This document shows, piece by piece, positions 2,293 to 21,600 of a stretch of 64,000 bases of DNA. Origin of the DNA: a plasmid. The DNA lies in sequence record NZ_CP067423.1; one strand, written 5' to 3'. The notes under the pieces were generated by a model. It saw only the letters and a list, made by a program, of their open reading frames with translations. It was not told where the DNA came from and ran no database searches. Numbering within the stretch: the stretch's first letter is position 1; each line of letters starts with the position of its first letter. The position numbers and the translations under genes were made by a program.

Positions 2293-2320
2293 GAACCGCC
2301 CTCCTGCCCGGCTGCTTTGG

Positions 2321-3028: not shown

Positions 3029-3103
3029 GGGATCGACAGTCGTCGCCGTGATAGACAGGGGGGAGTGCCGAGGGGCCGTTGCCGCATTTATGGCTGAATT
3101 GCG

Positions 3104-5347: not shown

Positions 5348-5507
5348 GTGGAATTTCAGGAGTGACAACCGGAATGACTCCGGCCGTCCCCGCTCAGAGA
5401 GTAGAACACTGCCTTCGGTCAGCCGAATATCGACAATGCCGGTCCTATGCTGCTGTGCAAGCCCGTTGTAGCCGCGGCAACAATTGCCGTGATTATGGGC
5501 CCCTGGA

Positions 5508-5768: not shown

Positions 5769-6329
5769 GTCTGATTGTCATCGACTTCCGGTACCCACGT
5801 CCAATTCATTGGCTGAATCGTTTGGGCGTGAGGGATTCACGTCGGTGATAATTGCCTCTCTGACGGGAAAGACGATCGACCGGAGGGTTGTCTAGTTGCT
5901 TCCGTTTCCCGTCGGCCCATGGACTTGTGGCAGCCTGACAAACACGCGTTGGGCAATTTTGAGCCACCACGCTGGGCGCTGCATAGCCGGCTAAGAGTCA
6001 TCTGTTCATGGGTGAAGGTGAGTCGCCCCAAAGGAGCGGCGGTCACGCCCACTCACTCGGTTTGACGCCATCCACCACTGTGAAACTTCTCAGGGTGCTG
6101 CATGGACCGAGCCAGCGGCATGTGGCATTGAAGGTTCTCGCGGATTGACCAACCGCGGAGAAACTAAGCGATTGAAAAATCGATGGAAAATGTACGCGCC
6201 GACGCCGCGATTCCGGACTGTGAGGCTCCGCTGAGTGATCTTGTTGGCGTGGACCTGGGCATGTCGTTAAGGTTTCGTTAACCTAAAATCCCTTGCCAGA
6301 GAACGGGAATCGCTCATACTGGCGCCAGA

Positions 6330-7571
6330 TTGGCCGAAAGGTCGAATATGGCGCTATTTTCTCGTTTGGGGGACAAAGCGGAGATGGCATTTCTCCCAAG
6401 TTTTGAGTTTGACGACAAGATCCTTGCCCAGGGGGCCGAGATCTCGCGCAAGCTCGACCAATTGCGCGTCGAGAAGTTTCCGACCGAGGGGCAGAAGACC
6501 CTTCGGCGGTTCTCGATGGCCGAGGTCGCCCACTATCTTGGTATCAGTCCGAACAATCTGAAGCGCCTCCATCTTGAAAAGAAAGGTCCTGAGCCTTTCG
6601 TCGGTGCCGGCGGACGGCGCTTTTACGCGGCCGAGCAGATGACCGAGCTTCGGGACTATCTCGACAAGCACGGGCGATCGGATTCCAAGAAGTATGTGCC
6701 CTACCGCAAACCTGGCGAGAAGCTGCAGGTCATTGCGGTCGTCAACTTCAAGGGTGGATCGGGAAAGACCACCACCACGGCGCACCTCGCGCAGCATTTG
6801 GCGCTCACCGGTCACCGGGTCCTGACGGTGGATCTCGATCCGCAGGCTTCGCTTTCAGCCCTCCATGGCTTCCAGCCGGAGCTCGACAAGAACCCCTCGC
6901 TCTACGACGCGATCCGGTACGACAACCCCGCCCCGGCCGAAGATGTCATCCGCAAGACGAACTTCCCCTTGCTCGATATCATCCCGGCGAACCTGGAGCT
7001 GCAGGAATATGAGTACGAGACTCCGCTTGCCATGCAGTCTCCGTCTCAGGAAGGAAAGCGGTTCTTCACGAGGGTCGCCCGGGCGTTGGATTCGGTCAGT
7101 GAGCGCTACGACGTCGTGGTCGTCGATTGCCCTCCACAGCTCGGCTATCTGACGCTGTCGGCACTGTCGGCCGCCACCTCGGTTCTGATTACCGTCCACC
7201 CGCAGATGCTGGATCTGATGTCTATGAGTCAGTTTCTGCTGATGCTGGGCAATATCATGAAGTCCATCAAGAATGCTGGCGCGAAGGTCCAGCTGGACTG
7301 GCTGCGCTATCTCATCACCCGATACGAGCCCACGGACATTCCCCAGGCACAGATGGTCGGCTTCATGCAGTCGATGCTTGCCGAGGAAATTCTGAAAAGC
7401 CCAATGCTCAAATCCACGGCGATTTCTGACGCCGGCCTCACCAAGCAGACGCTCTATGAGGTCGAGCGATCGAACTTCAATCGCGATACCTATGATCGGG
7501 CGATCGACAGCATGGATGCCGTGAACTTCGAGATTCAGGGACTGATCCACCAGGCATGGGGGCGGTTGTGA
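6330..7571 (+). CDS. repA: RepA, ParA-family partitioning ATPase of the repABC cassette
   Basis: Deviant Walker A VVNFKGGSGKTTTTAHLA and a long N-terminal extension typical of repABC RepA. First gene of repA-repB-repC in the same orientation. Confidence 0.9.
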   Translation: MAERSNMALFSRLGDKAEMAFLPSFEFDDKILAQGAEISRKLDQLRVEKFPTEGQKTLRRFSMAEVAHYLGISPNNLKRLHLEKKGPEPFVGAGGRRFYAAEQMTELRDYLDKHGRSDSKKYVPYRKPGEKLQVIAVVNFKGGSGKTTTTAHLAQHLALTGHRVLTVDLDPQASLSALHGFQPELDKNPSLYDAIRYDNPAPAEDVIRKTNFPLLDIIPANLELQEYEYETPLAMQSPSQEGKRFFTRVARALDSVSERYDVVVVDCPPQLGYLTLSALSAATSVLITVHPQMLDLMSMSQFLLMLGNIMKSIKNAGAKVQLDWLRYLITRYEPTDIPQAQMVGFMQSMLAEEILKSPMLKSTAISDAGLTKQTLYEVERSNFNRDTYDRAIDSMDAVNFEIQGLIHQAWGRL

Positions 7572-7572
7572 T

Positions 7573-7588
7573 GTTGACTGCCGTCAAA
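7573..7588. promoter_or_regulatory. candidate parS-like centromere dyad (TTGACtgccGTCAA) in the repA-repB spacer
   Basis: Imperfect dyad GTTGACTGCCGTCAAAAC loosely matches the repABC parS consensus GTTNNCNGCNGNNAAC. Some repABC plasmids place parS between repA and repB. Confidence 0.3.
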
Positions 7589-7646
7589 ACCACCAAAAAA
7601 ACCCACGGTTTCAAGCGCATAAGCCGCTTAAGGGGGTGCTAGTCAA

Positions 7647-8657
7647 ATGGCGCGGAAAAATCCCTTTGCCAGCATCATGGACAACGGCGACGCTCCCGCC
7701 GAGCGCCCGGTCGCGCAAGACTACACCTTCAAGGGGGCATCACGCTCGCTCATAAGCTCGATCGACGAAATGGCGGCTCAGGCAGGCAAGCTGCTCGAGG
7801 GCGAGACGATAATCGAGGTTAACCCCGACCTGGTGGACCAATCTTTCGCCAACGACCGGCTCAACGTCGATCAGGAAGATTACGAGGCCGACTACGCTCA
7901 GGTGTTGGAGTCGATCCGTGGTTCCGGCCAGAACTCCCCGGCGCTCCTTCGCCCTCACCCGCAGCGGCCCGGCCGCTACATGCTGGTCTTCGGTCGCCTC
8001 CGCTGGCGCGCCGCAAAAGAGCTTGGTCTCAAGCTTCGCGCTGTCATCAAGGATATCTCCGAGCGCGATCATGTGATCGCCCAGGGACAGGAAAACAACG
8101 CGCGAGCGAACACGTCCTTCATCGAGAAAGCACTGTTTGCCGCCGACATCGTTGAGCGGAAATTCGACGAGGACAACGCCACAGCCCTCGCCGCAATCGG
8201 TGTCGATCGGCCGACGCTTTCAAAGATGCTCTCTGTCGCCTCGATGCCCAAGGAACTTCTCGAGGCGATCGGCCGCGCGAAGGCTGTCGGTCGTGATCGC
8301 TGGTATGAGCTCAAGCTCCTCCTCGACAAGCCGGGCAATCTCGACACTGCCCTGGCTCTGGCATTGAGTTCCGATTGGCATGGGATGCCAAGCGAAGCGC
8401 GGTTCGATGCGGTCGTCACGAAGCTGAAGGCATCCAAGCCGCGCCGCCGTGCCGCGCAGGCGCCATCCAAACGCAACTGGGCGCCGTCTGATGGGCGTAT
8501 CGCCGCGGAGATGGTGGCCAGTGGCAAGAAATTCACCATCGCCCTCAAGGCGAAGGGAACCGACGCAGCAGCGTTCGGTGACTACCTCTCGGAAAATCTC
8601 AGCGAGTTGTATGAGGCTTTCCGTCGGGAAAAACGAGCAACCACGAACGGAGATTGA
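7647..8657 (+). CDS. repB: RepB, ParB-family partitioning protein
   Basis: 336-aa product with ParB-like central region, between repA and repC. Confidence 0.9.
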   Translation: MARKNPFASIMDNGDAPAERPVAQDYTFKGASRSLISSIDEMAAQAGKLLEGETIIEVNPDLVDQSFANDRLNVDQEDYEADYAQVLESIRGSGQNSPALLRPHPQRPGRYMLVFGRLRWRAAKELGLKLRAVIKDISERDHVIAQGQENNARANTSFIEKALFAADIVERKFDEDNATALAAIGVDRPTLSKMLSVASMPKELLEAIGRAKAVGRDRWYELKLLLDKPGNLDTALALALSSDWHGMPSEARFDAVVTKLKASKPRRRAAQAPSKRNWAPSDGRIAAEMVASGKKFTIALKAKGTDAAAFGDYLSENLSELYEAFRREKRATTNGD

Positions 8658-8664
8658 GCGCAAA

Positions 8665-8745
8665 AGAAAAAGGCCCCCGAAACGGCAATTCCGGAAGACC
8701 TTCTCTTTAAGTTTGGCGACTGAGAGAATCCCACTTCCGCGAATC
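8665..8745 (-). ncRNA. predicted counter-transcribed antisense RNA (ctRNA) of repABC in the repB-repC spacer
   Basis: 166-bp repB-repC spacer. On the minus strand a GC hairpin (cggaattgccgtttcgggggcc) is followed by a T-run (tttttctttt), giving a rho-independent terminator pointing toward repB, as expected for the repABC ctRNA. Confidence 0.45.
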
Positions 8746-8823
8746 ATAGTCAAGACCATTCAGGTCGGTTTGAGCGCCGATTCGGCGAGCAGGTTTCTTT
8801 TGCCTAGCAATAGGTGAAGGACA

Positions 8824-10140
8824 ATGCAGACGCATACCCCAACGACGCCCTTTGGGCGGCGAACGATGTCACTTGGCATGATGGCAAGCCAGGCTGTGGC
8901 AAAATCGGCACCGGCTGGCGCCCAGGTCCAGAAATGGAAAGTGTTCCAGACGATCCGGGAAGCGCGCGAGCTGATCGGCGCTACGGACCGCGCACTCGCC
9001 ATTCTCAACGCGCTGCTCTCGTTTCATCCGGAAACGGAGCTCACAGGCGACGGCGAACTGATCGTCTGGCCGTCCAACGAGCAACTCATGGCCCGTGCGA
9101 ACGGAATGCCGGCGACGACGCTACGGCGCCACCTGGCCGTCCTGGTCGACTGCGGGCTGATCATCCGCAGAGATAGTCCGAACGGCAAGCGCTTCGCCCG
9201 CAAGGGCAGGGGAGGTCAAGTCGAACAGGCCTACGGGTTCGACCTGGCGCCGATCGTTGCCCGGGCCGGGGAATTCAAGGAGCTGGCGGACACCGTCCGG
9301 GCCGAGAAGAACGCCCTTCGGATCGCCAAGGAGCGTCTCACGCTCCTGCGCCGCGATATCGTCAAGCTCATCGAGACTGGCATCGAGGAGAACGTTCCGG
9401 GCAATTGGGGCAGGGTCTACCAGACCTATCAGGCCATCGTCTGCCGCTTGCCGCGCTCAGCGCCGAGGCAACTCATCGAGGATATCTGCTGCGATCTTCA
9501 CGGCCTCTACACGGAGATCCTCGAGGTATTGGAATCATTTGCAAAAACACAGAATCCGGACGCCAATGAGTCCCATTCTGGTCGCCACATACAGAATTCA
9601 AACCCAGACTCCATATTTGAATCTGAAGACCGCTCTCGAAATAAGAATGAAGCGGGCGGCAGCGCCGCGGAAACCGACAACGTACGGAGCTTGCCGAAGC
9701 GAGAATTGCCTTTGGGCATTGTGCTGGACGCCTGCCCCAACCTGCGAGAATTGACGCAAGGCGGGGAAATCCGTCACTGGCGCGACTTTCTGGCCGCGGC
9801 GGAACTGGCCCGGCCGATGCTGGCAATCAGTCCCAGCGCGTGGCGGGACGCCTGCGAGGTCATGGGCGAACAGCACGCGGCGATCACCCTTGCCGCGATC
9901 TACCAGCGATCAGACCAGATCAACAGCGCCGGCGGCTATCTGCGCAGCCTGACCGACAAGGCAAGGGACGGCAAATTCTCGACCTGGCCAATGATCATGG
10001 CACTGCTGCGCGCCAAGCTGGACGCCGACAAATCGGCGGAGAAAACCGGCCACGAACCGCGAAGCGGCGGTGAAAGCGGGGAAGGGCGGCTCGAAGTCTC
10101 GGAAGCCCTTCTGCGGTCGCTGAACAAGCCCAGATCGTGA
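8824..10140 (+). CDS. repC: RepC replication initiator
   Basis: 438-aa product beginning MQTHTPTTPFGRR, in canonical position after repB. Confidence 0.9.
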   Translation: MQTHTPTTPFGRRTMSLGMMASQAVAKSAPAGAQVQKWKVFQTIREARELIGATDRALAILNALLSFHPETELTGDGELIVWPSNEQLMARANGMPATTLRRHLAVLVDCGLIIRRDSPNGKRFARKGRGGQVEQAYGFDLAPIVARAGEFKELADTVRAEKNALRIAKERLTLLRRDIVKLIETGIEENVPGNWGRVYQTYQAIVCRLPRSAPRQLIEDICCDLHGLYTEILEVLESFAKTQNPDANESHSGRHIQNSNPDSIFESEDRSRNKNEAGGSAAETDNVRSLPKRELPLGIVLDACPNLRELTQGGEIRHWRDFLAAAELARPMLAISPSAWRDACEVMGEQHAAITLAAIYQRSDQINSAGGYLRSLTDKARDGKFSTWPMIMALLRAKLDADKSAEKTGHEPRSGGESGEGRLEVSEALLRSLNKPRS

Positions 10141-10384
10141 TGATTGATAGATTTGAATTCCGCGGGCGGCAACTCGGTCAGTCTCTGTCGTCGTCGATCA
10201 GACCGTCAAAAGTTTCGAGCAGTGCATCGATGATCGATTGGCCAAGGGCATTTGCAGCTTCGCCCATCCGGGCATCGTCTCCGCACCGCGCCGCAGAAGC
10301 GAGCTCCGAACCCTGCTCGGTCAGGATCGACTTGGTTCGCTCGATGGCCCATTGGGCGAAATCGTCGCGGCTGTTGACGGACGT

Positions 10385-11490
10385 TGGTGCAGAAATCAGG
10401 ATGGGGCCGGATTACCCCCTTTCCCGCGGCGGTCAGGCGATCCGGCGGGACACCGGCATGCCGAGGCCGGTCATGATGTTGATGACCTTACATCCGGCGG
10501 TTGCCTCGACCTTCTGGGCAGGCAGACTCCGACCCCGCAGGCTGCGGCCAATCAGGGCCTTGTACCGAAACACCGCCACTTCGACCAAGGATCTTTTCCC
10601 GTAGCCGACGGCCCGCTGCCATCCCAGCCGACCACGCTCCTCGATCAGCTGGATGTGGCGGTCGCGCTGGGTCGGCTCGGTGTCCGCCGCGGCGCTCGGC
10701 ACCGCGGTCGAGCGGGGCGGGATGACCACGGCGGCGTCGGGAGTGTGCCCGGCGACGGAGCGGTAGACCGGCTCCCCATCGTATGCGCCGTCGGCGAACA
10801 CCGCGGAGATCGGGCGGTCGATCTGATCGAGCAGCGGGCCGACCCGCGACGCGTCGCCCTCGTCCATGGTGGTCAGCTCCGAGGCGAGGATCTCGCCGCT
10901 GTCGGGATCGATCGCCAAGTGGAGCTTGCGCCAGGTCCGTCGCGGCTTGCCGCCGTGTTTCTCGTGCAGCCACTCGCCGGCCCCGAACACCTTCAGGCCG
11001 GTGCTGTCGATCACCACGGTCACCGATCCGTTCGCCCGTTTCAGCGCCGCCGCGATCCCCAGGTCGACGCCGCGGCGCGAGAAGGTCGTATGGTCCGGGA
11101 CCGGCAGCTCCAGGCCGAGCAGCCCCATGACCGACTTCAGCATGCCTTCGGTCTGACGCCATGGACGACCAAAGGCCAGGCGCAACATCAGCCCGGCCTC
11201 GATGGCGATGTCCGAATAGCTTCGCGGCCGGCCGCGTTTGCCTGACCGGGCCGGTGTCCAGGCCGCGAGCGCCTCGGGCGTCACCCAGACCGTCAGGCTG
11301 CCCCGTCGCTGAAGTGCGGCATCATACTCGGCCCAGTTGTCAATCTTGTAGCGCGCCTTCGGGATCTTGTGGCGGCGGGGTTCGTTCGCCTTGTAGGGCA
11401 TGCAAATCTCGAGGGGCGACAGGCGGGCGGCCCCTATACGCGACCTGACTCCCGGACGCCAGCTCGATCACCATTTTCGCACCAATGTCC
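10385..11490 (-). mobile_element. IS5-family (IS903-group) insertion sequence, ~1.1 kb
   Basis: Imperfect terminal inverted repeats GGACGTTGGTGCAGAAAT (10385-) and GGACATTGGTGCGAAAAT (reverse complement of ..11490) flank a single transposase ORF. No 9-bp target duplication was found. Confidence 0.7.
10433..11401 (-). CDS. DDE transposase, IS5 family (IS903-like)
   Basis: N-terminus MPYKANEPRRHKIPKARYKIDNWAEYDAALQRRGSLTVWVTPEALAAW parallels the IS903 transposase (RYRISNWSEYN..LINRGSLTFW). 322 aa in one frame. Confidence 0.85.
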   Translation of the reverse strand: MPYKANEPRRHKIPKARYKIDNWAEYDAALQRRGSLTVWVTPEALAAWTPARSGKRGRPRSYSDIAIEAGLMLRLAFGRPWRQTEGMLKSVMGLLGLELPVPDHTTFSRRGVDLGIAAALKRANGSVTVVIDSTGLKVFGAGEWLHEKHGGKPRRTWRKLHLAIDPDSGEILASELTTMDEGDASRVGPLLDQIDRPISAVFADGAYDGEPVYRSVAGHTPDAAVVIPPRSTAVPSAAADTEPTQRDRHIQLIEERGRLGWQRAVGYGKRSLVEVAVFRYKALIGRSLRGRSLPAQKVEATAGCKVINIMTGLGMPVSRRIA

Positions 11491-12283
11491 CGCCCAGGCG
11501 CTCCTTGCCGCCGCTCGAGGTCTGGCGCGGCACCAGGCCGAGCCAGGCCGCCAGATGGCGACCGGACTCGAAGACCGTGGCGTCGCCGACCGTCGCCGTC
11601 AGCGCCGTCGCGGTGATCGGGCCGATGCCGGGAACCGTCATCAGCCGCTGACACGCCTCGTCCGCCTTCGCCTGCTCAGCCAGCCGGGCGTCGAGGTCCT
11701 CGACCCGGCGTTCGGTGTCGCGCAGCTGGTCGACAAGACTCTGAAGAATGCTTCGCGCCAGAGCGGGAACCCGGGTGTCCTCCAGGTCGGCCACCACGGC
11801 GGTCAGCTGCGCGACCTTGCCGGCGCCCTCGGGGGCGATGATGCCGAACTCGGCGAGATGGGCGCGCAGCGCGTTGATCAGCTGGGTCTTCTGGGCGACC
11901 AGCGTCTCGCGCACCCGGTGGATCGCCAGCGTGCTCTGCTGCTCCTCGGTCTTGACCGCAACAAAGCGCATGCTCGGTCGCTGCATCGCCTCGCAGATCG
12001 CTTCCGCGTCGGCCCGGTCGTTCTTCTGGCGCTTCACGTAGGGCTTGACGTACTGCGGCGCCATCAGCCGCACCGTGTGGCCGAGCCGGGTAAGTTCCCG
12101 TGCCCAAAAATGCGACCCGGCACACGCCTCCATTCCAACCACGCACGGCGTCAGGTTGGCGAAAAACGCCAGCACCGCGTCTCGCCGCAGACGCTTCGTC
12201 ACCACCACCTTGCCCTGAACGTCGATGCCATGAACCTGAAACACCGACTTCGCCAGATCGAGACCGATGAATGCCGCGGACAT
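11468..12283 (-). pseudogene. IS110-family transposase gene, 3'-truncated where it abuts the IS5 element
   Basis: DEDD N-domain and HhH region (MTVPGIGPITATAL) are present. The reading frame leaves IS110-like sequence after ...SSGGKERLGG and runs into the IS5 terminal repeat (TLVRKW*). About 60-75 C-terminal residues are missing. Confidence 0.7.
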
Positions 12284-12394
12284 CGCACACTCTCCGGGAT
12301 GAAAGGGACCTATCCGTTACGTGGCACTGACGTGCCAGATGCGGGAGGCCGTCCACCTCATCACTCCAAGGTGAACCGGTAACATTATTTCAGC

Positions 12395-13027
12395 TCAGTT
12401 GGAAGCGTGCTCACGCTCTTCTACCACGCGTTTCTCGTCTTCTGTTCCGTTAAGAGCTTCAAGCGCTCGATCGATATCCTCCAAGCGTTTTAGCAGTTTG
12501 ATGCGCTCCAGCTTAAGCTGATGACGTTGTGCTTCTAAATCAATAGGCTGCGGAGCACGGACGCGTCGTTTGAATTGCAGAATATCCTCTCGCCGCATCT
12601 CTGGCTGTATTATGCCTTCTTTCAGCGCTTGAACACGTTCCTCTGAAGTTAGAGTCGTAATTTGGTAACACGTCTCCGAAGCATTGGGCAGTAAGTTTAA
12701 CGGCAGTTCTTCAGCTTCGATAAACCGAGCTACACTCATCAGCTTATTAGCGGACTGGTGGCTAAATGGCAGGTCGGATGCTACCATCGCCATAAACTCG
12801 CCGTGCTGCAGCCTGTCCTTCGCGGCAAGTAGGTAGCGCCCGATGAGTAGAAAGCTTTCTTGACTTTCCGTCCAAGCACGTCGAATTTCCGCAGCAAATT
12901 CCTCGCGTGCGAGGAGTTTAGCTGGATCGCGTGGAGGTGTGAGACGTGGTGCCAGTATGCCAATTGGGGCGAGGATCTCTCCGGCGTCCTCAGTCGTCAT
13001 GATACGCGGCGTTTGTTTCCTAGCCAT
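12395..13027 (-). CDS. hypothetical protein, possible partition partner (ParB role) of the adjacent small ParA
   Basis: 210-aa ORF overlapping the parA stop by 8 bp in the same operon, with a C-terminal coiled-coil region. Assignment is by position only. Confidence 0.4.
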   Translation of the reverse strand: MARKQTPRIMTTEDAGEILAPIGILAPRLTPPRDPAKLLAREEFAAEIRRAWTESQESFLLIGRYLLAAKDRLQHGEFMAMVASDLPFSHQSANKLMSVARFIEAEELPLNLLPNASETCYQITTLTSEERVQALKEGIIQPEMRREDILQFKRRVRAPQPIDLEAQRHQLKLERIKLLKRLEDIDRALEALNGTEDEKRVVEEREHASN

Positions 13028-13652
13028 GGATCATAGCCTCTACCGCCTGGGCCAACTCGGCGAAATCGTTGCGAACTGCAGCATCGTCCAATGGCATCCC
13101 GAAGAACGAGTAGTTCTGATAAGCTGCGCGAAGCGGCACCTCAGCGCTGAGCAACGGCACTTTGAACGCAGCAAGTTGCTCGCGAGCGAACCCTGCGGCT
13201 TGAGTTCGCTTATTAACCTGCATCAGCACAGCAGCCGCTGGGATCATGATATTAGGCTTATATCGTTGTGCCTGCCGTTCTGCGGTGGTGACATGCTGAT
13301 ACGTCCGTGCTGCTTCGATAGCATCTTTCTGGTCAGGTCGGGCTGGAATTAGAACGGCGCTTGCTACCCCGATAGCGTAGACTAGTCCGCGCGCTAGTGC
13401 TCCGGCGACGTCAATAACAACCACCTCAGAACGCTGTTCAGCCTCAGACGCAGCATCGACGAGGTCATCTTCGTCTACGACAGTCCATGGAATGGGTGAT
13501 TTCGCTCCCTTGAGCCACTGACTCAAGTTGCGATTGGGATCGACATCCAGAACCTCTACGGATTTTCCCGTTCGGTGCCAATGATCTGCCAGACACAGTG
13601 TCAGAGTGGTTTTTCCTGGGCCACCCTTGGTGGAAGCAACCGTAATGATCAT
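13020..13652 (-). CDS. parA: small ParA/Soj-family partition ATPase (type Ib)
   Basis: N-terminal MIITVASTKGGPGKTT deviant Walker A in a 210-aa product. It diverges from the iteron origin region. Confidence 0.85.
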   Translation of the reverse strand: MIITVASTKGGPGKTTLTLCLADHWHRTGKSVEVLDVDPNRNLSQWLKGAKSPIPWTVVDEDDLVDAASEAEQRSEVVVIDVAGALARGLVYAIGVASAVLIPARPDQKDAIEAARTYQHVTTAERQAQRYKPNIMIPAAAVLMQVNKRTQAAGFAREQLAAFKVPLLSAEVPLRAAYQNYSFFGMPLDDAAVRNDFAELAQAVEAMIHG

Positions 13653-13769
13653 GTCCTAAACTTCCGCGCCTGATTCCTATGCCACCCTGCGTCTCTCACC
13701 ATTGAGTGTCAAGCGTTGGGAGCTGATAAGAACGATGATAGTTATCTAGTTCAGCGGTTAAACGGCTAC

Positions 13770-14190
13770 GCCGTTACGGAGCCGAATCAATTTTCAAAAT
13801 CAATATCTTATACCTAATTGCGTGGATCAAATGACGAAGGCTTGTGGAGCAAACGACGAGTCTCTGTGGATGTCATGCCTAATTGATGTGGATCAAATGA
13901 CGAGTTGAGGTGAGCGTCGCGACATCCTCCTTTCTAACGTGGATCAAATGACGACATCGCGACTGTGGATAAGTGGCTAGTCTGGATTGGAATGTGGATC
14001 AAATGACGAGGAGCGTGGGTCTGCTGACGAGAAACGTGGATGTAATGACGAGCCACCTTGGTGTGGGCAGCCTCCGAAGACCCGACAAACCCAAAAAGTT
14101 CGTCATTTGATCCACATCGTTACGTTTATCCGTGCCGCTTGGGAGGGCTAGAGGCATGATGGTAGATGTTGGAGACAGTTATCGTCATTA
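13770..14190. repeat. iteron-type replication origin (oriV): AT-rich tract, 16-bp iterons GTGGATCAAATGACGA on a 21-22-bp period, two inverted copies near the rep start
   Basis: Exact direct copies at 13822, 13888, 13939 and 13994. Variants at 13844, 13866 and 14036. Inverted copies at ~14100 and ~14172. AT-rich aatcaattttcaaaatcaatatc at 13775-13815. Confidence 0.8.
13964..13972 (-). promoter_or_regulatory. perfect DnaA box (TTATCCACA on minus strand) inside the iteron array
   Basis: Plus strand reads tgtggataa, an exact reverse complement of the DnaA box consensus. Confidence 0.5.
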
Positions 14191-14211
14191 CGTCCACATC
14201 ATTGGTGCCCC

Positions 14212-15144
14212 ATGCAGCCTGACCAGCTTGCCCTTCAGCTAGACAGCCCACTTATGGGCAAGGCAAAGAATGATCGCAATTTGATGGTTTACGCGTGGTT
14301 CGGCTTGAACCGTGAAAAGCAAACTGAGCTTCCGATCTACGACGATGGAAAAGTTCGCATCGAAGTTACCGGTACGAAGCATGGGATCGCTAATATCTGG
14401 GATGCTGAGCTGCTTATTTATCTAGCTTCGATCATTCAGGAACGTATCAACCTTGGTGTAGTACCTGAGCCATTGGTGAGTTTCGCTGCACATGATTTCT
14501 TCCGTATCACTGAGACGAAGCCGGGCGGCAGTTCCTATGACCGGCTTGAGGAAGCCTTGGCACGATTGCGAGGCACGCTGATCCGCACCAACATCGAGAC
14601 GGGAGGCGAAGGAGAGTCGGAAGGTTTCGGTTGGATCGACAGCTATAAGATCCAGTACCGTCGCGGCCGCGATGGCGAGAAGATCATGAAGGCCGTACAA
14701 GTCAGGATTTGCGATTGGCTATTCCGTGCCATCGTTAAGGATCGGCGCATGCTGACCTATGATCCACGATACTTCAAGTTAGCGCCGCTTGAGAAGCGGC
14801 TCTATGAAATCGCCCGAGCGCACTGCGGCAACCAAAATGGTTTTAAGATCAACCTGCTGAAGCTTCACCGCCGGATCGGTACGGCGATGGAGCCACGGTT
14901 CTTTAAGGCGCAACTGGTAAAGATGGCAAAGCGGAAAAACCCGCTACCCGAGTATGGCTTTATGCTGGTCGACCCACGCGTCAAGTTGTCGGTGGATAAA
15001 AAAGCGTTGCCGCCACCCGGCCGCACTCCGCTCAAATCATGGATGGTGTTTTTTTTCAGAACTGATCGCCTCTCGAGTATGCCTCCGTTTGCTACAGCGC
15101 CAGAGGTTGAGGACGACTTCCCTGTATCGGAACTGCCAAGCTAA
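14212..15144 (+). CDS. plasmid replication initiator protein (RPA / replication initiator protein A family-like)
   Basis: 310-aa ORF immediately downstream of the iterons. The motif GIANIWDAELLIYLASII resembles the conserved IWDADxLIW motif of alpha-proteobacterial iteron Rep proteins. Divergent from parA. Confidence 0.7.
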   Translation: MQPDQLALQLDSPLMGKAKNDRNLMVYAWFGLNREKQTELPIYDDGKVRIEVTGTKHGIANIWDAELLIYLASIIQERINLGVVPEPLVSFAAHDFFRITETKPGGSSYDRLEEALARLRGTLIRTNIETGGEGESEGFGWIDSYKIQYRRGRDGEKIMKAVQVRICDWLFRAIVKDRRMLTYDPRYFKLAPLEKRLYEIARAHCGNQNGFKINLLKLHRRIGTAMEPRFFKAQLVKMAKRKNPLPEYGFMLVDPRVKLSVDKKALPPPGRTPLKSWMVFFFRTDRLSSMPPFATAPEVEDDFPVSELPS

Positions 15145-15789
15145 TCGTGAGGGTGTACGGGAACGGTAATCAGCCGTATTCTGTATTACCAAATGTTTAC
15201 GCTGCTGAATCTTGAACAAACTAGCAACACGATCTGCCCCGCACTCGTGGTGTTTATACCGTAACAGGCATCACTGAGTATTCTCGTCGTCAGAAACACA
15301 ACTGATGCCAAAAGTCGGTCGGCTGAGGCCGCCAACGAGCGGCCGACCAGTTTCGTGACGTCGGACGTCAAGTAGCTTCGCAGGGACCCATCTGCAGCTC
15401 GGCTTCCGCTAGCTGGGGAATTGGCGATTTGCTCCGGGCGAAGATGGGTGGAAGCTGCTTGACGCCCACAGGCAGAAGACCCTCAAGCCCGTGTTCGCGT
15501 TCTCTGGGCAGACGCCTTGAATTTTTCTGGTTTTCGCGCCTTGTACCGGGCAGATTCCGGGCGTGTGTCTAGGAATTTTCCGGGCGTGCTGCGGCCTCGA
15601 TAACACTCAGAACGAGTTTGGGCGTTGATACGCCGAGCTTTTTCAGCAGCTTGGCCAGCTCCGAGCCGATCCGGGTGCGCTGAACAATAGCCCGGCTTTC
15701 CGTCCGATAGCGCACCGCCTTCAGGCAGTCGAGCGCATGGGCGATGCGCGCCCACGGCAGCGCGCAGCGGATCTCGGCGGCCTGCTGCA

Positions 15790-16260
15790 TCTGCAAGGCC
15801 AACACACAGCTTCACGTGCGCCTCGATCCGCCGCGCCGTCCAGTGGAACATCGGCCGCACTTCATGCTCGCTCTGCTTCATGCGGCGGAAGCAGGACTCA
15901 ATGATCCAAGCGCCTTTGTATCCCAGGGCTACGTTCTCGGACGACAGCGTATCGTCGTTGGTGATCACCACGAACTTGTCGCCGAACTTCTCAGCCGTCT
16001 TCACCTTGCCCGTATTCAGCTTTGGCCGTCTGCGTCAGTTGGTGCCGAGATAGCGGCCGTACCGGCGCGAGGCTATCAGCCGGCAGGCTGCCTTGGGGTG
16101 ATCGACATCCCACTCGTCGAGCAGCGTGATGACCACCTCGAGTTCGGCCAGGACCTGCTCGTGGTGCTGACGCTGGCTTTCGGCCTCTCGCGGGTTCATG
16201 CACAGCACGTAGCGCCGGCGCCGCTCGCCCTCCCGACGCGTTCGTGAGCTGAGCCGCCAT
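15790..16260 (-). pseudogene. fragmented DDE transposase (IS4/IS1634-like) remnants
   Basis: Minus-strand frames give ...RYVLCMNPREAESQRQHHEQVLAELE... and ...VVITNDDTLSSENVALGYKGAWIIESCFRRMKQ...FHWTARRIEAHVKLC (C-terminal Y..IE..FR..K region) in different frames. No intact ORF. Confidence 0.5.
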
Positions 16261-16290
16261 CATGCGGCGATCGGCTCGTCAGCGGTCGAG

Positions 16291-16758
16291 GTCAACAGGG
16301 TTCGTGGGGACCCGCGCGCACAAGCGCAGCGCGGAGCGTGGGCGGAACCCCGTTGACCCCCACGGCTCTGATATCCTAATAGCTCCCTGGTTTGATCCTT
16401 AAACCAGGGATGCCCTCCCGGCGAGGGATCCTAAAATCTCACTTCCTCATAACCGAATAACGGAAGCAGGTTGATCAGGGTAGACCGCCAGCCTCGTGGT
16501 TGGGGAAAGCGGGCCGTGTTAGGTGGGTTCGTCGACCTGACCGCAAGCCAGGATACCCCGCTCCACGTCACCTTGTCAGCCCGACGGCGTTCCTTTCTCA
16601 GGACTTTGACTGGAGCAAAGACAGTGCCCTCGTCAGGCCGGCATCTCCTCCGGTTGCTGGTGGCAGCCGGAGGGAAGCCAGGAGAATATTTGGTGGGACG
16701 GGGTCAACAGGATTCCGCCCACGCTCCGCTCTGCGCTTGTGCGCGCGGATTCCCGTGA
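16291..16758. repeat. ~470-bp element bounded by ~55-bp near-identical inverted repeats, hairpin-rich interior
   Basis: 16304-16360 (GGGGACCCGCGCGCACAAGCGCAGCGCGGAGCGTGGGCGGAACCCCGTTGACCCC) is ~90% identical to the reverse complement of 16703-16758. The left copy is itself palindromic. The interior has several stable stem-loops. Confidence 0.5.
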
Positions 16759-17061
16759 ACCTTAGCGCAAACAGTAGACGTCAGGCATGTTAGTACTGAT
16801 TAGCGATCGATGGTGATGTTGCTCAAGAGTCACACTAGCTGGGGCGAGGTCCATGCTGCATCTGATGATCATCGGAATTGCCGTGCTCGGCATGATCTGG
16901 AATGTGGACCTGGGCGCCCGGCCCTATGTCGACGTGGCAATGTGGCTTCTGTTCGCCGGGCTGATGTTTCACCTGGGTGACCGGTTCAACACCTGGCTGG
17001 ACCACTGGGCGGTCCGGCCCAGGTGGCGCCGGAACCGCCGCCGCGCAGCTGGACGGCCGGA

Positions 17062-17421
17062 TCACTCCGGCGCGTCGATCCCTCTCCTGGACAAGTAGTC
17101 CCGCAAGGAGCGCAGGAAGAACACGGACTGATGTACCCGGGCACGGCCGCACGCCTCCGCCATGGCAGCGGCCACCTCGGGGGTCAGTCGGATGTGGCGG
17201 GTCCGGATCTTGCGGCCGGGGATGGTGGCAACGAAGATGATCTCCTCGTCACTATCCAGCCGCTCGACCATTGCGCTGACAGCTTCGTCGTAGATGGCCC
17301 GCAGCGGCTGGCACCGCTGCTTCGCATAGGCACGCACGACATTCATCAATTCGTCCGACAACCCCGTCACGCTGGTCTCGGTCGTCGGGTAGGCAGGTCG
17401 TGGCACCGTCGCAATTTCCAT
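17062..17421 (-). CDS. hypothetical protein, last gene of the T4SS-2 operon (possible ribbon-helix-helix type regulator)
   Basis: 119 aa from MEIATVPRP; C-terminal KIRTRHIRLTPEVAAAMAEAC resembles RHH/CopG-like segments. Starts 8 bp after the trbI-like stop. Confidence 0.4.
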   Translation of the reverse strand: MEIATVPRPAYPTTETSVTGLSDELMNVVRAYAKQRCQPLRAIYDEAVSAMVERLDSDEEIIFVATIPGRKIRTRHIRLTPEVAAAMAEACGRARVHQSVFFLRSLRDYLSRRGIDAPE

Positions 17422-17428
17422 TGATTTG

Positions 17429-18562
17429 TTACGTCTCCGGAAAAGGAATATCACTATTTATCTGAATTCGATAGATAGCGCCGGATCTCATCGTCAGTAC
17501 CGGCGGTCTCATTAATTCCCGGTTAACGTATTCACCGCCGACGCCTCGGATGCCCTGAGTGCCGACATTTACCGCGACACCGGCCGGCCCCTCGATCAAT
17601 CCACCCAAGGCGCCGACGAACGACAGCGCTCCCTCGATCAGGATGCCGGTGGCGATGCCGCTCCAGGGGTAGTCGCTCTCCGCCTCGACGCCGCTGGCGC
17701 CGTCCTGGCCGAGCGCCGGCGAACATGCCATCGGCATGATTCCACCCCCCAGCAGGTCGACCCGGGTGGCACACATCTGGACCCTCAGGTCGCCTCGGCT
17801 GACGCCGGTGGCGTTCAGCTCGGTCATGACGGTGCTGCCGGCGGGGATGGCCAGGCACTCCTCGACCTGACCGTTGCCCAGGAAAATCCGTCCAAAGGCG
17901 TCCTCGATGATGATGCCGCGCACCTGGCCGGGCAACTCGGTGCGAACCGGGTTCGGGTTCTGGATCACCAACTCCTCGCCCGCCTTCAGGATGCAGCCGG
18001 TCAGTTCGGGCTGCAGGCTGTGCGGGTGATAAAGGCCCTGGCCACTGCGACCACCGCCCCGAGTGTAGAAGTCAGACTTGGCGTTGCCGCCCTCGCCACC
18101 TGTCCCGGCTGCCACAGGTGTCGCTGCGACATCTCCGCTCCCCTGGGCCATGCTGCTACCGCCCAACAGCGGGTTCATCACGGCGCCCATGTGCTTGTTG
18201 TCGAACGCCAGAACCGACACCTTGAAGTTCCTGACCGGCTGCTTGCGTGGCACTTCGCTTCTCCGCTCCTGCCGGTGTCCGGGAGGCGGCGCTTGCTCGC
18301 CTGTTTCCGGTGGCGGTGTCTCGGCAACTTGCGGCCTGGGTTCGGGCGCCCGCGCGCTGATGGCCGCCGGCTCTAGACCCTTGGGCTCCTCGCGTTCCGA
18401 CTCGGTCGTGATCCCGGCCACGCCGTAGAGCATGGCGAGGACCGCAACGACGGAGGTTCCACCCAACAGCAGGGTCCGCTTGTTGAAGCGCCCGCTGTAT
18501 TCGCGGACAGGCTCCTCGATGCCATCCTCTCCGGGATGACGCTCCTTGTCGTAGCTTCTCAT
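17429..18562 (-). CDS. trbI: T4SS-2 VirB10/TrbI-like protein
   Basis: N-terminal TM (LLLGGTSVVAVLAMLYGVAG), Pro-rich linker (PEPRPQVAETPPPETGEQAPPP), and a C-terminal Gly-rich beta-barrel region. Position follows the trbG-like gene. Confidence 0.75.
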   Translation of the reverse strand: MRSYDKERHPGEDGIEEPVREYSGRFNKRTLLLGGTSVVAVLAMLYGVAGITTESEREEPKGLEPAAISARAPEPRPQVAETPPPETGEQAPPPGHRQERRSEVPRKQPVRNFKVSVLAFDNKHMGAVMNPLLGGSSMAQGSGDVAATPVAAGTGGEGGNAKSDFYTRGGGRSGQGLYHPHSLQPELTGCILKAGEELVIQNPNPVRTELPGQVRGIIIEDAFGRIFLGNGQVEECLAIPAGSTVMTELNATGVSRGDLRVQMCATRVDLLGGGIMPMACSPALGQDGASGVEAESDYPWSGIATGILIEGALSFVGALGGLIEGPAGVAVNVGTQGIRGVGGEYVNRELMRPPVLTMRSGAIYRIQINSDIPFPET

Positions 18563-19563
18563 CGTTCTCTCCGAACGGTCATGACGAGGTCACCGCGCAC
18601 GAACCGGACCTCTCCGGGCAGGCCGCGGATGACGTAGTGGCGAGAGGTGGGGTCGATCCAGAATGAGGGAGCCGATCCCCTGGGCAGGAACGGGACCGGC
18701 CGGCTGGATAGCCGGGCGGGCGGCAGGATGTAGGTATTGACGCCATCGTTGTAGGCCGACCACTCGCCGGGCAGGAATTCTGCAGGGCCGTGATAGACGT
18801 ACCGGGTATCCGAGACGGCGGTCGCGTCAGGCCTATGCACCGTAGCGGCTGTCACCCTCGGTTGATCGGACCCGTAGGTATGCTGGACGACCGGATGATA
18901 TGCTGCGTGGCACTTGCGGGGAGCGGCGTCCTCGGCCGGCTTACAGGACGGAACTACGAGATCGTAGAGGTACACCCTGCTGCCGGTAGCGATGGACAGC
19001 GATGTCCGCTCACCCTGTTTGTAGGCCTTGACGGTGACGATCAACCGGGCGCTGGCGGACTTCCTGTTGTTGGCCCGTTCCCGTTTGGCTCGCATGGACG
19101 TACCGTCGACGCCCCCGGCGGTCACCTCAACCATGAACCACTGCGGGTTTCCCAAGATAGCCTCCGGCGTGGCCTCGCCCGGCTCCAAGTAGAAGAGGGT
19201 CACATCGCTGTCGGTTTCCCCGTCGGCAGATGGGCCGTCCATGATAACCTGCTGTCGGACACCGTTCTGGAACGGGCAGGTCATGATTGATCCCTCGAAG
19301 CTGCAGTCCAGGGCGGTGCGCCGGGACCTCTTGACCATGGCCGCAGTCTTGGCGGCTGGCGACGTGAACTTCTTTTCCGGTTTGGCGGGCCCGGTCGCCA
19401 CACCACCAAAAGGCACGGGCACCTGCAGCGTGCCCGGCCCGGGAGGCTGAACCTCCTGGGCCTGGAGGTAGTCGTAAGTCAGTGACGGAGCATCACCCGA
19501 TGGACCGCCTGCGCAGCCCGCCAACACCACCCCCGCAACCGACATCAGCAGAAACTTACACAT
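18559..19563 (-). CDS. trbG: T4SS-2 VirB9/TrbG-like lipoprotein
   Basis: Lipoprotein signal MCKFLLMSVAGVVLAGC in a 334-aa product. Sits between the trbF-like and trbI-like genes and overlaps the trbI-like start by 4 bp. Confidence 0.7.
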   Translation of the reverse strand: MCKFLLMSVAGVVLAGCAGGPSGDAPSLTYDYLQAQEVQPPGPGTLQVPVPFGGVATGPAKPEKKFTSPAAKTAAMVKRSRRTALDCSFEGSIMTCPFQNGVRQQVIMDGPSADGETDSDVTLFYLEPGEATPEAILGNPQWFMVEVTAGGVDGTSMRAKRERANNRKSASARLIVTVKAYKQGERTSLSIATGSRVYLYDLVVPSCKPAEDAAPRKCHAAYHPVVQHTYGSDQPRVTAATVHRPDATAVSDTRYVYHGPAEFLPGEWSAYNDGVNTYILPPARLSSRPVPFLPRGSAPSFWIDPTSRHYVIRGLPGEVRFVRGDLVMTVRRER

Positions 19564-19628
19564 TTCCAGCCGTCCTCAATCGCGATTTATGGGCTGTATT
19601 ATATCCCATAAACAACCTCAGTTGAGCC

Positions 19629-20321
19629 TCACTCGGTGCCCAGGATTTCATAGTCGGTGATCAGGATGCCCATCGGGTTACAGTCCCGGATCTCGGCCGA
19701 GACGTTGGGGAACCGCTGCACCCGGAACTCCGCCGACTTCGGCACCACGGTCCTGCGCATGCCGTCGTCGAACGTCTCCGACCAAGCCGCGCTGATCCAC
19801 ATGCCCTCGGTGTTGCTGCGCTCGCCAGGGCGGCGCCCCACCCGCACATCTTTCTCCGACAGGATGCGCTTCTGGCCGCGGCGCACCATCTCGACGCCGG
19901 CAGATCGTTCGAACGACCGGTTGGCCTTGGTCGCGGCCGGGCCGGTGACGGAGCAGTACAGGGTGTCAATCATCTCCTGCACCTGGGCCGAGGAGTCGAT
20001 CCGACGCAGCCTGTAGACCAGGCGCTTGACCTCGGCGCGGGCCGCTGCCTCGAACTCATCAGCCTTCAGGTCGCCGGCCCTGATCACCTTGAGGGACGTG
20101 AAGTCGCTGTCGAGCAGAGCGGCGAACACTTCCGGCGGCGCCGCCGCGATCTGTTCGCGCTTGTAGACCTGAAAGCCGTTCAGCCCCAGGCTTGCCGCCA
20201 GGGCGAGGACCAGGGCGCGCAAGGCGCCCCGCTGCTGCTGGGCGAGCCATCCCGGGCGGAACGGCTTGGTTTGCTCGACGGTCGGCTCTGGCTGGGTGCG
20301 GCGCATGCGGATCTTGTCAAA
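19629..20321 (-). CDS. trbF: T4SS-2 VirB8/TrbF-like protein
   Basis: True start MFDKIRMRR (ATG at 20321; upstream ORF-track extension is Arg/His-rich junk). Short cytoplasmic N-terminus, one TM (ALRALVLALAASLGLNGF), then a periplasmic domain. Position after the trbL-like gene. Confidence 0.6.
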   Translation of the reverse strand, partial: FDKIRMRRTQPEPTVEQTKPFRPGWLAQQQRGALRALVLALAASLGLNGFQVYKREQIAAAPPEVFAALLDSDFTSLKVIRAGDLKADEFEAAARAEVKRLVYRLRRIDSSAQVQEMIDTLYCSVTGPAATKANRSFERSAGVEMVRRGQKRILSEKDVRVGRRPGERSNTEGMWISAAWSETFDDGMRRTVVPKSAEFRVQRFPNVSAEIRDCNPMGILITDYEILGTE

Positions 20322-20326
20322 CATTC

Positions 20327-21367
20327 TTATACTCTCCTGGATTGGCCGGCTGCGGCCTTGGCGACGCGGGACCAGTACTGGCTCTGAGCTGCGGCCGATG
20401 CCGTCGTCCTGGCGCCGCTGGCCACCCGTTGGGCGCCCTGGCCGATGCCGCGCCAGGTGCTCGTCATGTGCGTGACCTCGCGCTGCGCCAGGGAGCGCCC
20501 GCGCTCGACCATCGCCCCGGTGCCAGTGACGGACCTTGCGACGTTGCCGATGCCCCGGGTGATGGCCTGGGATGACAGCTGCGGCACGGCACTGATGATG
20601 CCGGCGGAAAGCGTTCGGGACTGCCAGGCCAGCCACGCGATGAACACGGCGAGCAGCACCGCCGGGATGATGTCGTCGAAGACCGGCGTTGGCGGCAGGT
20701 CCATCAGCTCGAATGCCCGCGAACCGATGCCGGCGACCATGGCGATGATGACCAGCTTGACCAGGTTGTTCAGCCAACCCTGGATCGCGCCCTCGGCCAT
20801 GTTCTTCGTGAACGGCGTCACGGCCATCGGCGTGAACAGCAGCATGAACAGGCCGTTGGTCTTATAGCCGATCGCCGTGGTCGCCATCTCGAACACCAGG
20901 AAGGCGAATGCCACGTAGATGAACAACGCCGCCAATTCCAGCATAAGCCTGTCGTCCAGGGTTTTGCCGCATTCGATCCACCCGGAGCACAGGGCCTGCT
21001 TCGTGGCCAGGATCTTGTCGGCCTGACCATCGCCGATGCCCCAGAGGGCGGATGGTGTGAACAGGTCCGCGGTCGCGCCATCGGCACCGACGATCCCGCC
21101 ACCGAGTGCCAGCGCGAAGTTGCCGGCAGCGTCGACGATTTCCTTGGCCGACCAGGCGATGGCCAGGAACAGCCAGAAGATCACGAACATCCCGATCAGG
21201 TCGCCGATGATGTTGTCCATGGCACCGGCCAGCCAGGCGAAGGCCAGCCGGGTGACGGCCCATCCGAACGCCAGGGCGAAGGTCGCCAGCACCACCGGCA
21301 TGATCAGCTCGAAGCCGGCGTCCAGGATGCCTAGGACCATGAAGAAAACTTCATCGACGACGCTCAT
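20327..21367 (-). CDS. trbL: T4SS-2 VirB6/TrbL-like polytopic membrane protein
   Basis: True start MSVVDEVFFMVLGILDAG (ATG at 21367). Five or more hydrophobic helices and a Gly/Ala/Gln-rich C-terminal tail as in TrbL. Confidence 0.75.
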   Translation of the reverse strand: MSVVDEVFFMVLGILDAGFELIMPVVLATFALAFGWAVTRLAFAWLAGAMDNIIGDLIGMFVIFWLFLAIAWSAKEIVDAAGNFALALGGGIVGADGATADLFTPSALWGIGDGQADKILATKQALCSGWIECGKTLDDRLMLELAALFIYVAFAFLVFEMATTAIGYKTNGLFMLLFTPMAVTPFTKNMAEGAIQGWLNNLVKLVIIAMVAGIGSRAFELMDLPPTPVFDDIIPAVLLAVFIAWLAWQSRTLSAGIISAVPQLSSQAITRGIGNVARSVTGTGAMVERGRSLAQREVTHMTSTWRGIGQGAQRVASGARTTASAAAQSQYWSRVAKAAAGQSRRV

Positions 21368-21591
21368 GGCGGATGCTTCTGGGTCAGGGTTTTCGGGTCC
21401 ACCTTGCGCTGGCCGCATTCGGGACAGTCGCCGAGGCCGCGGTACAGCCGATCGATCTTCTCCTGCGCCTGCTGTTCCTGGCGCCTGATTTCTTCCTGCA
21501 TGATCCGTAGCTCCTCGGCCGCAGGGTCGGGGTGCGGGGCGGGGCACAGCACGGTCAGGCCGATGCCGAGCAGGATTGCGCAGATGTCCAT
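21364..21591 (-). CDS. small secreted/lipoprotein-like protein in the trbK (entry-exclusion) slot
   Basis: 75 aa with signal-like MDICAILLGIGLTVLC followed by a charged coiled segment. Sits between the trbJ-like and trbL-like genes with overlapping stop/start. Confidence 0.4.
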   Translation of the reverse strand: MDICAILLGIGLTVLCPAPHPDPAAEELRIMQEEIRRQEQQAQEKIDRLYRGLGDCPECGQRKVDPKTLTQKHPP

Positions 21592-21600
21592 GTCGTCACC

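Follow-up and report, generated by a model that had tools for sequence, protein, structure and literature searches.

Initiators with an RPA domain are listed among the winged-helix (WH) initiators of replication, and several WH initiators occur together on about 15% of the plasmids that are linked to the phylogeny of this group (bioRxiv 10.1101/2024.09.03.610885). In Azospirillum, the secondary replicons of large size are all iteron plasmids, most groups of which have RepA boxes oriented opposite to the main cluster, and some of these replicons possess a parA candidate without an identifiable parB (bioRxiv 10.64898/2026.09.14.751567). Here, a small replication module encoding an RPA-type initiator is described, which is located in a stretch of 64,000 nucleotides (nt) from the plasmid record NZ_CP067423.1. 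This whole stretch is referred to as the window, and all positions are given in window numbering. The segment 12369-15482 is, with high probability, a complete and selectively maintained theta-type iteron replicon with a partition cassette of its own, and the sole replicon seen in a plasmid backbone of the Skermanella type.

Genes were identified from the list of open reading frames (ORFs) by scans against Pfam and NCBIfam, with the curated cut-offs as a yardstick. Metagenome contigs (JGI) carrying relatives of the module are denoted by numbers of the form L0xx. The module consists of the following features:

12395-13027, minus strand: ParA partner of 210 amino acids (aa), a DUF3102 protein and candidate centromere-binding protein (Pfam)
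13020-13652, minus strand: small Walker-type ParA partition ATPase of 210 aa (Pfam/NCBIfam)
13653-13739, minus strand: upstream region of parA, presumed promoter/operator (conservation among parA-bearing relatives)
13740-14211, plus strand: origin of replication (oriV) with iterons, DnaA box, AT stretch and palindromic block
14212-15144, plus strand: Rep, winged-helix iteron initiator of the RPA family, 310 aa (PF10134)
15145-15482, plus strand: low-GC tail of the module (GC 0.55) with a terminator-like hairpin at 15163-15177, followed by a T-run

The genes parA and rep are arranged divergently with an intergenic region of 559 bp between them, and the tail at 15145-15482 is conserved in every related contig.

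Initiator, origin and base composition

The product of rep was assigned to the RPA family (PF10134) with a score of 186.7 bits, well above the cut-off of 27 bits (E = 6.3e-55), and the match extends over model positions 1-226 of 228. An RPA-like Rep had already been named in the preliminary description of this region, where the sequence GIANIWDAELLIYLASII was quoted from it; this sequence is present in the protein. The small ParA and its 210-aa partner diverging from an origin region were likewise recovered as described there, and the designation as an iteron-type replicon, for which no iterons had been given, is borne out by the repeats presented below.

Many homologues of Rep also give weak Pfam matches to Rep_3 and TrfA. 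No NCBIfam family was found for Rep or for the ParA partner, and a sequence search of the PDB with Rep resulted in spurious matches to coiled-coil and designed proteins only, with no detectable similarity to any chain. The predicted fold of Rep matches those of the initiators RctB and R6K pi, and according to the model the protein should contain tandem winged helices (WH1-WH2). With plasmid proteins of Roseomonas, Indioceanicola, Azospirillum and Skermanella, Rep shares 42-57% identity, and no Rep more than 60% identical to it was found in PLSDB. In a scan of one genome per species, the closest species-level Rep, and the single close relative, was that of Skermanella aerolata KACC 11604 (contig54), with identities of 92% at the protein and 77% at the DNA level. 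Furthermore, an identical Rep protein is encoded on 11 short, independent metagenome contigs. Compared to L017, 16 amino acid changes in 309 codons stand against 113 synonymous third-position changes, which argues for purifying selection on the rep lineage during its drift towards A/T.

The origin is characterized by the 16-nt iteron GTGGATCAAATGACGA, of which eight matches with up to three mismatches are located inside 13822-14197 (376 bp). In the whole 64-kb window, 10 matches were counted compared to 0.45 expected, and none of 100 shuffles gave 10 matches. Including two further degenerate copies in register, the origin comprises eight direct and two inverted iterons in total. The direct iterons start at 13822, 13844, 13866, 13888, 13939, 13994, 14015, and 14036, resulting in start-to-start spacings of 22, 22, 22, 51, 55, 21, and 21 nt and thus in a 21-22-nt register inside the clusters. 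The inverted iterons are located at 14100-14115 and 14182-14197, the second of which stops 15 nt before the start codon of rep.

A perfect DnaA box, TGTGGATAA, which is the reverse complement of TTATCCACA, lies at 13964-13972 between the iteron clusters. It is invariant in S. aerolata and kept throughout the relatives, L019 having one mismatch. Directly to the left of the iterons, the segment 13783-13821 has an AT content of 74% and is a candidate for the unwinding element. The left edge of oriV is formed by a conserved palindromic block within 13743-13782 (GTTAAACGGCTACGCCGTTACG). This block was considered as a parS site and rejected due to its equal conservation in relatives lacking the par genes; for the same reason, it was assigned to oriV. 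By eye, it does not fit the CtrA pattern TTAA-N7-TTAAC.

The block, which reads AGTTAT..GTTAAACGGCTACGCCGTTACGG and has its core at 13756-13778, contains the palindrome AACGGC-TAC-GCCGTT and is kept in every relative, with or without parA. Another palindromic motif that is conserved, GTCGCGAC, is located between iterons at 13915-13922.

In the origin of S. aerolata, the same repeat is found in the same order, with spacings of 22, 44, 51, 55, 21, and 21 nt and an inverted pair 82 nt apart. Between the window and S. aerolata, 87% of the iteron columns are identical compared to 57% of the other origin columns (Fisher p = 7e-11). In L020 and L023, of which the Rep proteins are 80-81% identical to that of the window, every iteron at the same positions, the inverted ones included, reads GTGGACGAAAGGGCGA. 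This replacement of all copies indicates that the iterons changed in concert with the initiator and co-evolved with it, as expected of initiator-binding sites. On this comparative evidence, the origin can be regarded as real, and in every property tested the module corresponds to the RPA-type iteron replicons.

With a GC content of 52.2% (12369-15144), the module is considerably more AT-rich than the segment 15145-64000 (64.8%), in agreement with the contrast to a backbone of about 65% GC stated in the preliminary description; for the segment 1-10380, which is identical to Aminobacter plasmids, the value is 60.1%. The low-GC stretch has sharp borders, a left one at 12369 and a right one at about 15480. 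The GC content at third codon positions (GC3) amounts to 0.49-0.61 in the module, compared to 0.75-0.78 in the neighbouring genes and 0.72-0.85 in the same three genes of close relatives. Due to the latter values, the usual AT-richness of origins was rejected as an explanation.

Third-position differences from L017 were counted in codons for the same amino acid. Codons ending in A/T in the window but in G/C in L017 outnumber the reverse by 86:16 in rep, 65:15 in parA, and 51:11 in the partner gene, whereas a control pair of relatives gave 34:35. At the same time, the proteins stay 92-95% identical to those of the high-GC relatives. The counts indicate a strong, lineage-specific synonymous shift directed towards A/T, and the simplest reading of a low-GC module with conserved proteins would be a past period in a host with lower GC content. 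The low-GC island was acquired before the split of two lineages that share its right flank, and it is unrelated to repABC.

The junction with the repABC plasmid

Two complete replication systems of different type are present on one contiguous sequence, namely repABC at 6330-10140 and the RPA replicon at 12369-15482. The following features belong to the other replicon and to the insertion sequences (IS) between the two systems:

6330-10140, plus strand: repA-repB-repC of an Aminobacter-type plasmid, the other replicon (RepC with PF03428 and PF11800)
10379-11490, minus strand: IS5-family insertion sequence (transposase at 10433-11401 with PF13737 and PF01609)
11491-12368, minus strand: IS110-family element, cut by IS5 at the C-terminal end of its transposase (PF01548 and PF02371)

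Over 1-10380, the window has 100% identity to three plasmids from Aminobacter, pMDW3 and its relatives, which carry trb, traI/traR-like and repABC genes, and the repABC segment is annotated as repA/repB/repC in pMDW3. For 10381-64000, no match to these Aminobacter plasmids was obtained at any position; the DNA matches of this part are patchy and restricted to plasmids of Skermanella and Azospirillum. The IS110-family element is 90-92% identical to IS110 copies of Skermanella.

The identity to pMDW3 breaks off at 10380, no more than 2 bp away from the left end of IS5 at 10379. The terminal inverted repeats of IS5, GGACGTTGGTGCAGAAAT and GGACATTGGTGCGAAAAT, agree in 15 of 18 positions, and no target duplication was found in its flanks. 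At the junction (10137-10380, compared to pMDW3 49840-50055), the first 13 nt of a gene for a hypothetical protein of 71 aa are removed, which in every other copy of the plasmid examined sits after repC. Relatives of IS5 occur beside related RPA replicons. L018 and L020 carry copies with 72-73% identity over 0.5-1 kb, and in L023 the terminal 99 nt are 97% identical; judged by these occurrences, IS5 appears to travel with the Skermanella-like plasmid pool. The IS5 transposase was not on record in an exact-protein look-up, and self-BLAST revealed no second copy of IS5 in the window.

A cointegrate origin, as had been suggested before, fits the IS5 junction without target duplication. Two findings, which leave the junction without independent support, speak against it. 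The 40-mer spanning the junction gave 0 matches in the JGI metagenome contigs, and the exact RepC is listed in 70 blocks of the collection, with pMDW3-type genes following it in 10 of the 10 places shown and IS5 in none.

That repABC and the RPA replicon are adjacent might be an artefact of assembly, produced by an assembler crossing between two plasmids that each carry the same IS5, in which case the module would be located on a free plasmid of the Skermanella type. This explanation has to be taken seriously, although it does not reach the level of the probable. In its favour, a target-site duplication is lacking, as would be expected from two separate insertions; no other dataset contains the junction; the left and right sides are affiliated with different orders; and the left part has 100% identity to plasmids known to stand alone. 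On the other hand, since both junctions coincide exactly with IS termini, the Aminobacter-type plasmid must really have received IS5 even then, which slightly favours a genuine association. As relatives of IS5 were found only beside Skermanella-like replicons, the two gene pools must have met, and a repeat of 1.1 kb is easily spanned by long reads. A physically real fusion of two plasmids via IS copies, yielding a molecule with two replicons, is on this sequence evidence considered just about probable.

Partition genes and the surrounding backbone

The genes parA and its partner overlap by 8 nt. ParA contains a deviant Walker A motif (KGGPGKT, residues 9-15) and lacks an N-terminal DNA-binding domain, as the CbiA/ParA domains cover the full protein. 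Its Pfam matches are CbiA, AAA_31, VirC1, ParA, and MipZ. The NCBIfam model NF041546 (ParA_partition) was matched with E = 4.9e-32 and 111 bits, which is under the equivalog cut-off of 180 bits, yet it is the best family by far.

The sole Pfam match of the partner is DUF3102 (PF11300, E = 1e-6), and for 20 members of the partner family no other Pfam match was obtained, even at E-values up to 5. A PDB sequence search with the partner gave spurious coiled-coil and designed-protein matches only. The structural model (predicted local distance difference test, 80.8) is all-helical and contains no beta strand. It predicts a disordered, basic N-terminal tail (residues 1-30), a helical core (41-157) and a C-terminal helix of 45 residues, which is a probable coiled coil. 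The best structural matches of the model are the helix-turn-helix (HTH) DNA-binding domains of KorB and ParB, to which it shows a weak resemblance; a Foldseek search with the model gave nothing significant, Spo0J being one of the top matches and the best E-value 0.8. It is a well-motivated inference from the model that the partner is a KorB/ParB-like HTH centromere-binding protein without a CTPase domain. Among the three papers on DUF3102 in the library searched, judged by titles only, none with a link to plasmid partition was found.

The order partner-parA-ori-rep is kept in L017, L019, and L023, with identities of Rep, ParA, and partner to the window proteins of 95/94/77%, 85/84/69%, and 81/47/41%, respectively. 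L020 retains parA-ori-rep (Rep 80%, ParA 48%) and stops inside parA. The parA-DUF3102 pair is present in L003-L007, L017, L019, L023, L026, and L027 and on Azospirillum plasmids. Overlapping parA-DUF3102 operons were found on megaplasmids of A. lipoferum 4B (p2), A. thermophilum, A. oryzae, and strain TSH58 (NC_016586, 746628-747843; NZ_CP029357, 12576-13906; NZ_CP054618; NZ_CP022369). The proteins of the A. lipoferum 4B p2 pair are 73% (ParA) and 48% (DUF3102 protein) identical to those of the window. These pairs may be the cases of parA without identifiable parB reported for Azospirillum (bioRxiv 10.64898/2026.09.14.751567).

On p2 of A. lipoferum 4B, the parA-DUF3102 pair lies 1.4 kb from a canonical ParA/ParB operon. 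In L027 (JGI 3300048855, Ga0496065_005426, 16 kb), the partner is 77% identical to that of the window, and the pair adjoins a complete type I-E CRISPR-Cas locus consisting of cas3, cse1, cse2, cas7, cas5, cas6e, cas1, and cas2.

In relatives without parA (S. aerolata, L018, and L021), the homology to the window begins exactly at 13740. This boundary argues for two separable sub-modules, a par cassette (12369-13739) and an ori-rep unit (13740-15144). The 87-bp region upstream of parA has only short conserved motifs in common among the parA-bearing relatives, including TTGACA (reverse complement of TGTCAA within 13709-13715) and a conserved CCACCCTGCG; its identity to the par-less locus of S. 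aerolata is 40%, which is about random. As a centromere repeat, TTCCTGGGCCACCCT, which occurs twice, was rejected because one copy is the Walker A coding sequence of parA.

It is unlikely that ParA and the DUF3102 protein serve a purpose other than partition, either as a VirC1-like ATPase recruiting the relaxosome together with an accessory DNA-binding protein or as a KorB-like pair of regulators. For such a role, it can be stated that the match of ParA to VirC1 (PF07015) exceeds its cut-off with 36.8 bits while the ParA_partition score is under its own, that genes of a type IV secretion system (T4SS) and a relaxase are located close by, and that KorB is a global repressor as well. However, the pair stays beside oriV and rep in relatives down to 47% ParA identity, it is found on Azospirillum megaplasmids distant from any T4SS, and in NCBIfam the E-value for ParA_partition (5e-32) is far lower than that for VirC1 (5e-10).

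To the right of the module, the following features were identified:

15483-16298, minus strand: remnant of an IS1634-family (IS4-related) transposase, frameshifted compared to the variant lineage (tblastn)
16299-16761, no strand: element resembling a miniature inverted-repeat transposable element (MITE), with imperfect terminal inverted repeats of 89 nt (arm pairing)
17429-31084, minus strand: cluster for a virB-type T4SS, coupling protein and relaxase (Pfam)

Both flanks thus conform to the preliminary description, which had listed IS110/IS5 elements on one side and IS4-like debris with an element flanked by inverted repeats on the other. The IS1634 remnant has 52-58% identity to IS1634-family transposases of Acidiphilium in tblastn and differs by insertions and deletions from L002, L003, L004, and L007. 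The T4SS cluster is complete and encodes VirB10, B9, B6, B4, B2, B11, VirD4, and a MobA/VirD2-like relaxase; numerous IS elements are also present in this Skermanella-like part of the window.

The junction of the module with IS110 is also present in L005, and other DNA is found to the left of 12369 in L003 and L004. Across the right flank, L005 and L006 are identical to the window as far as they reach. A second lineage, which is diverged by about 4%, shares the module (L002, L003, L004, and L007). In L002, the identity is about 96% over module and flank and about 99% over 17090-17660, and the shared sequence extends past the debris of IS1634 and the MITE-like element as far as the first genes of the T4SS. 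Small circular plasmids were considered as an explanation for the short contigs of 3.7-5 kb from metagenomes; this was rejected, since these contigs end in repeats and run into IS110, debris of IS1634, the MITE-like element or genes of the T4SS. No other replication initiator turned up among the large ORFs that were scanned in the window part of the second backbone.

The arms of the MITE-like element (89 nt) are 78% complementary and 285 nt apart. L005 and L006 stop inside its left arm, which suggests that the element is multi-copy in those metagenome samples.

The Aminobacter identity ending at IS5, the right flank shared with L002 and the occurrence of this replicon type in S. aerolata together argue that the module is the resident and only visible replicon of a conjugative backbone of the Skermanella type (Azospirillaceae), which comprises at least 53.6 kb, and not an insert of about 3 kb. 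With respect to the second replication system next to repABC, the preliminary description was right in so far as repABC is located about 2 kb to the left of a compositionally foreign module bracketed by IS elements; its reading of the module as an insert captured inside a repABC plasmid is not supported, because the repABC/trb identity ends at 10380 and none resumes in 10381-64000.

A reading of the module as a decaying relic, that of a second replicon out of use, is improbable. IS debris surrounds the module, its native left flank was replaced by IS110, and any centromere on the downstream side of the partner gene may be gone, as only 26 bp remain between its stop codon and IS110. Nevertheless, all three ORFs are full length, Rep is identical on the 11 independent contigs, the excess of synonymous changes is strong, iterons and DnaA box are intact and conserved, and no other replicon is visible for the second backbone. 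As little credence is given to the capture of a small foreign replicon by IS activity within a repABC plasmid that continues beyond it, for which the foreign composition, the IS elements on both sides and the distance of 2.2 kb to repABC could be cited, since Aminobacter-plasmid sequence does not resume in 10381-64000 and is thus excluded for 49 kb past the module, the replicon type is native to Skermanella, and independent contigs retain the flank on the right as far as the first T4SS genes (L002) and the left IS110 junction (L005), both being too short to show whether repABC is nearby.

Four observations count against a complete replicon that is native to its backbone and has passed through a host of lower GC content. 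The visible part of the second backbone is limited to 53.6 kb, so that another replicon could lie beyond the window. A scan of 12300-15500 for consensus sigma-70 promoters gave none for rep or parA. Convincing centromere repeats were not found in 12360-13830, where two-copy families occur at chance level only. A donor of lower GC content was not found either, and a megablast search of PLSDB with the module DNA gave only 65 bp of the IS110 end.

Further features of the window concern the wider backbone. Three sets of conjugation genes are present, namely trb (1-2500), virB2-B11/virD4/relaxase (17429-31084), and a second virB9/B10/B11 set towards the window end (58696-62278). The segments 49017-49985 and 57698-58666 are 100% identical direct repeats of 969 bp, each with an IS6-family transposase of 272 aa (PF13610). 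The 8.7 kb between them, encoding a Toprim/DUF7146 (primase-like) protein of 1109 aa and a CHASE4-GGDEF-EAL protein, look like a composite transposon. At 32227-34275, a protein of 682 aa is encoded, which matches the YhgA/Rpn-like family PF04754 (Transposase_31) only at residues 373-559 and has a DUF4351 tail; its N-terminal extension of about 370 residues gave no Pfam match.

Proposed mechanism and relation to known systems

From the anatomy of the locus, the paradigms of R6K, RK2, pPS10 and F, which serve as background, and the Azospirillum survey, the following mechanism is proposed. Rep monomers would bind the eight direct 16-nt iterons in their register of 21-22 bp, and the host DnaA would bind its box at 13964-13972. 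Melting of the segment 13783-13821 with its 74% AT would allow the helicase to be loaded. Bound to the two inverted iterons, which lie no further than 112 bp from the start codon of rep, Rep may repress its own gene and thereby contribute to copy-number control, and pairing mediated by the iterons would limit over-replication. The copies would be segregated by the small ParA and its DUF3102 partner, which is expected to bind a centromere via its KorB/ParB-like helical domain, to dimerise via the C-terminal helix and to stimulate ParA via the basic N-terminal tail. Finally, copies of IS5 would have fused an Aminobacter-type and a Skermanella-type plasmid, resulting in a molecule with two replicons.

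A bolder combination of these elements is put forward tentatively, as possible rather than probable. DUF3102 proteins could represent an unrecognised class of centromere-binding partners for small type Ib-like ParA proteins, with an HTH core lacking a CTPase domain, a ParA-activating tail and a coiled-coil dimeriser, and could be the missing ParB of replicons in Azospirillaceae and Acetobacteraceae; at the same time, a repABC/trb plasmid of the Hyphomicrobiales and an RPA/virB plasmid of the Rhodospirillales would really have fused, as recorded in the window, to a two-replicon shuttle between orders with several T4SS.

As a textbook iteron replicon, the module is of value mainly for annotation. 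Rep and GTGGATCAAATGACGA constitute a new specificity pair of initiator and iteron, which is common to S. aerolata and hence a likely incompatibility group. The AT-directed synonymous drift in three genes, compared to proteins conserved at 92-95%, offers a well-resolved case of a minimal replicon that went back and forth between hosts differing in GC content. The DUF3102 protein, of KorB/ParB-like predicted fold and constantly paired with a small ParA, is a candidate for the partner missing on some Azospirillum replicons. If the IS5 junction is true, one molecule would combine repABC, an RPA replicon and several conjugation systems, with a wider host range and a harder incompatibility typing as consequences.

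Type Ib partition systems consist of a small ParA and a small centromere-binding protein, for example ParF-ParG of TP228 and the systems of pTAR and pB171. The cassette resembles them in a ParA of about 210 aa with a deviant Walker A motif and no N-terminal DNA-binding domain, in a small partner that has a flexible N-terminal tail and is encoded by an overlapping gene following parA, and in its position by the origin. In contrast to the ribbon-helix-helix partners of the ParG/omega type, the DUF3102 partner is all-helical in the model. It also differs from ParB and KorB, the type Ia CTPases, as it lacks the N-terminal CTPase domain (PF02195) and has no Pfam or PDB match to ParB or KorB, and its predicted C-terminus is a long helix unlike the dimerisation domains of these proteins.

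No sequence similarity of Rep was detectable to R6K pi (2NRA), domains 2-3 of Vibrio cholerae RctB (5UBF), RepA of pPS10 (1HKQ), or RepE of F (2Z9O), and the extra domains of RctB are absent from it. RepE, pi, and RepA have a half-iteron palindrome upstream of rep. The module, in contrast, carries two full inverted iterons 82 bp apart at this position. In the joining at an IS of two replication systems, repABC and RPA-iteron, together with several T4SS sets, the window as a whole is comparable to multi-replicon or cointegrate plasmids such as those of IncF. It differs from these in that only one junction is visible and that its halves point to two different orders, one to the Hyphomicrobiales (Aminobacter) and the other to the Rhodospirillales (Skermanella).

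The closest correspondence is to the RPA (PF10134) replicons of the Rhodospirillales, with which the module shares a single RepA/RPA gene preceded by a cluster of direct repeats, reverse "remote" boxes, DnaA boxes, and par genes that are independent of rep. It differs in that it is not carried by a megaplasmid or chromid but is a compact low-GC island of 3.1 kb by a T4SS on a conjugative-type backbone, its iteron sequence is specific to its sub-lineage, and its ParA is paired with a DUF3102 protein in place of a canonical ParB.

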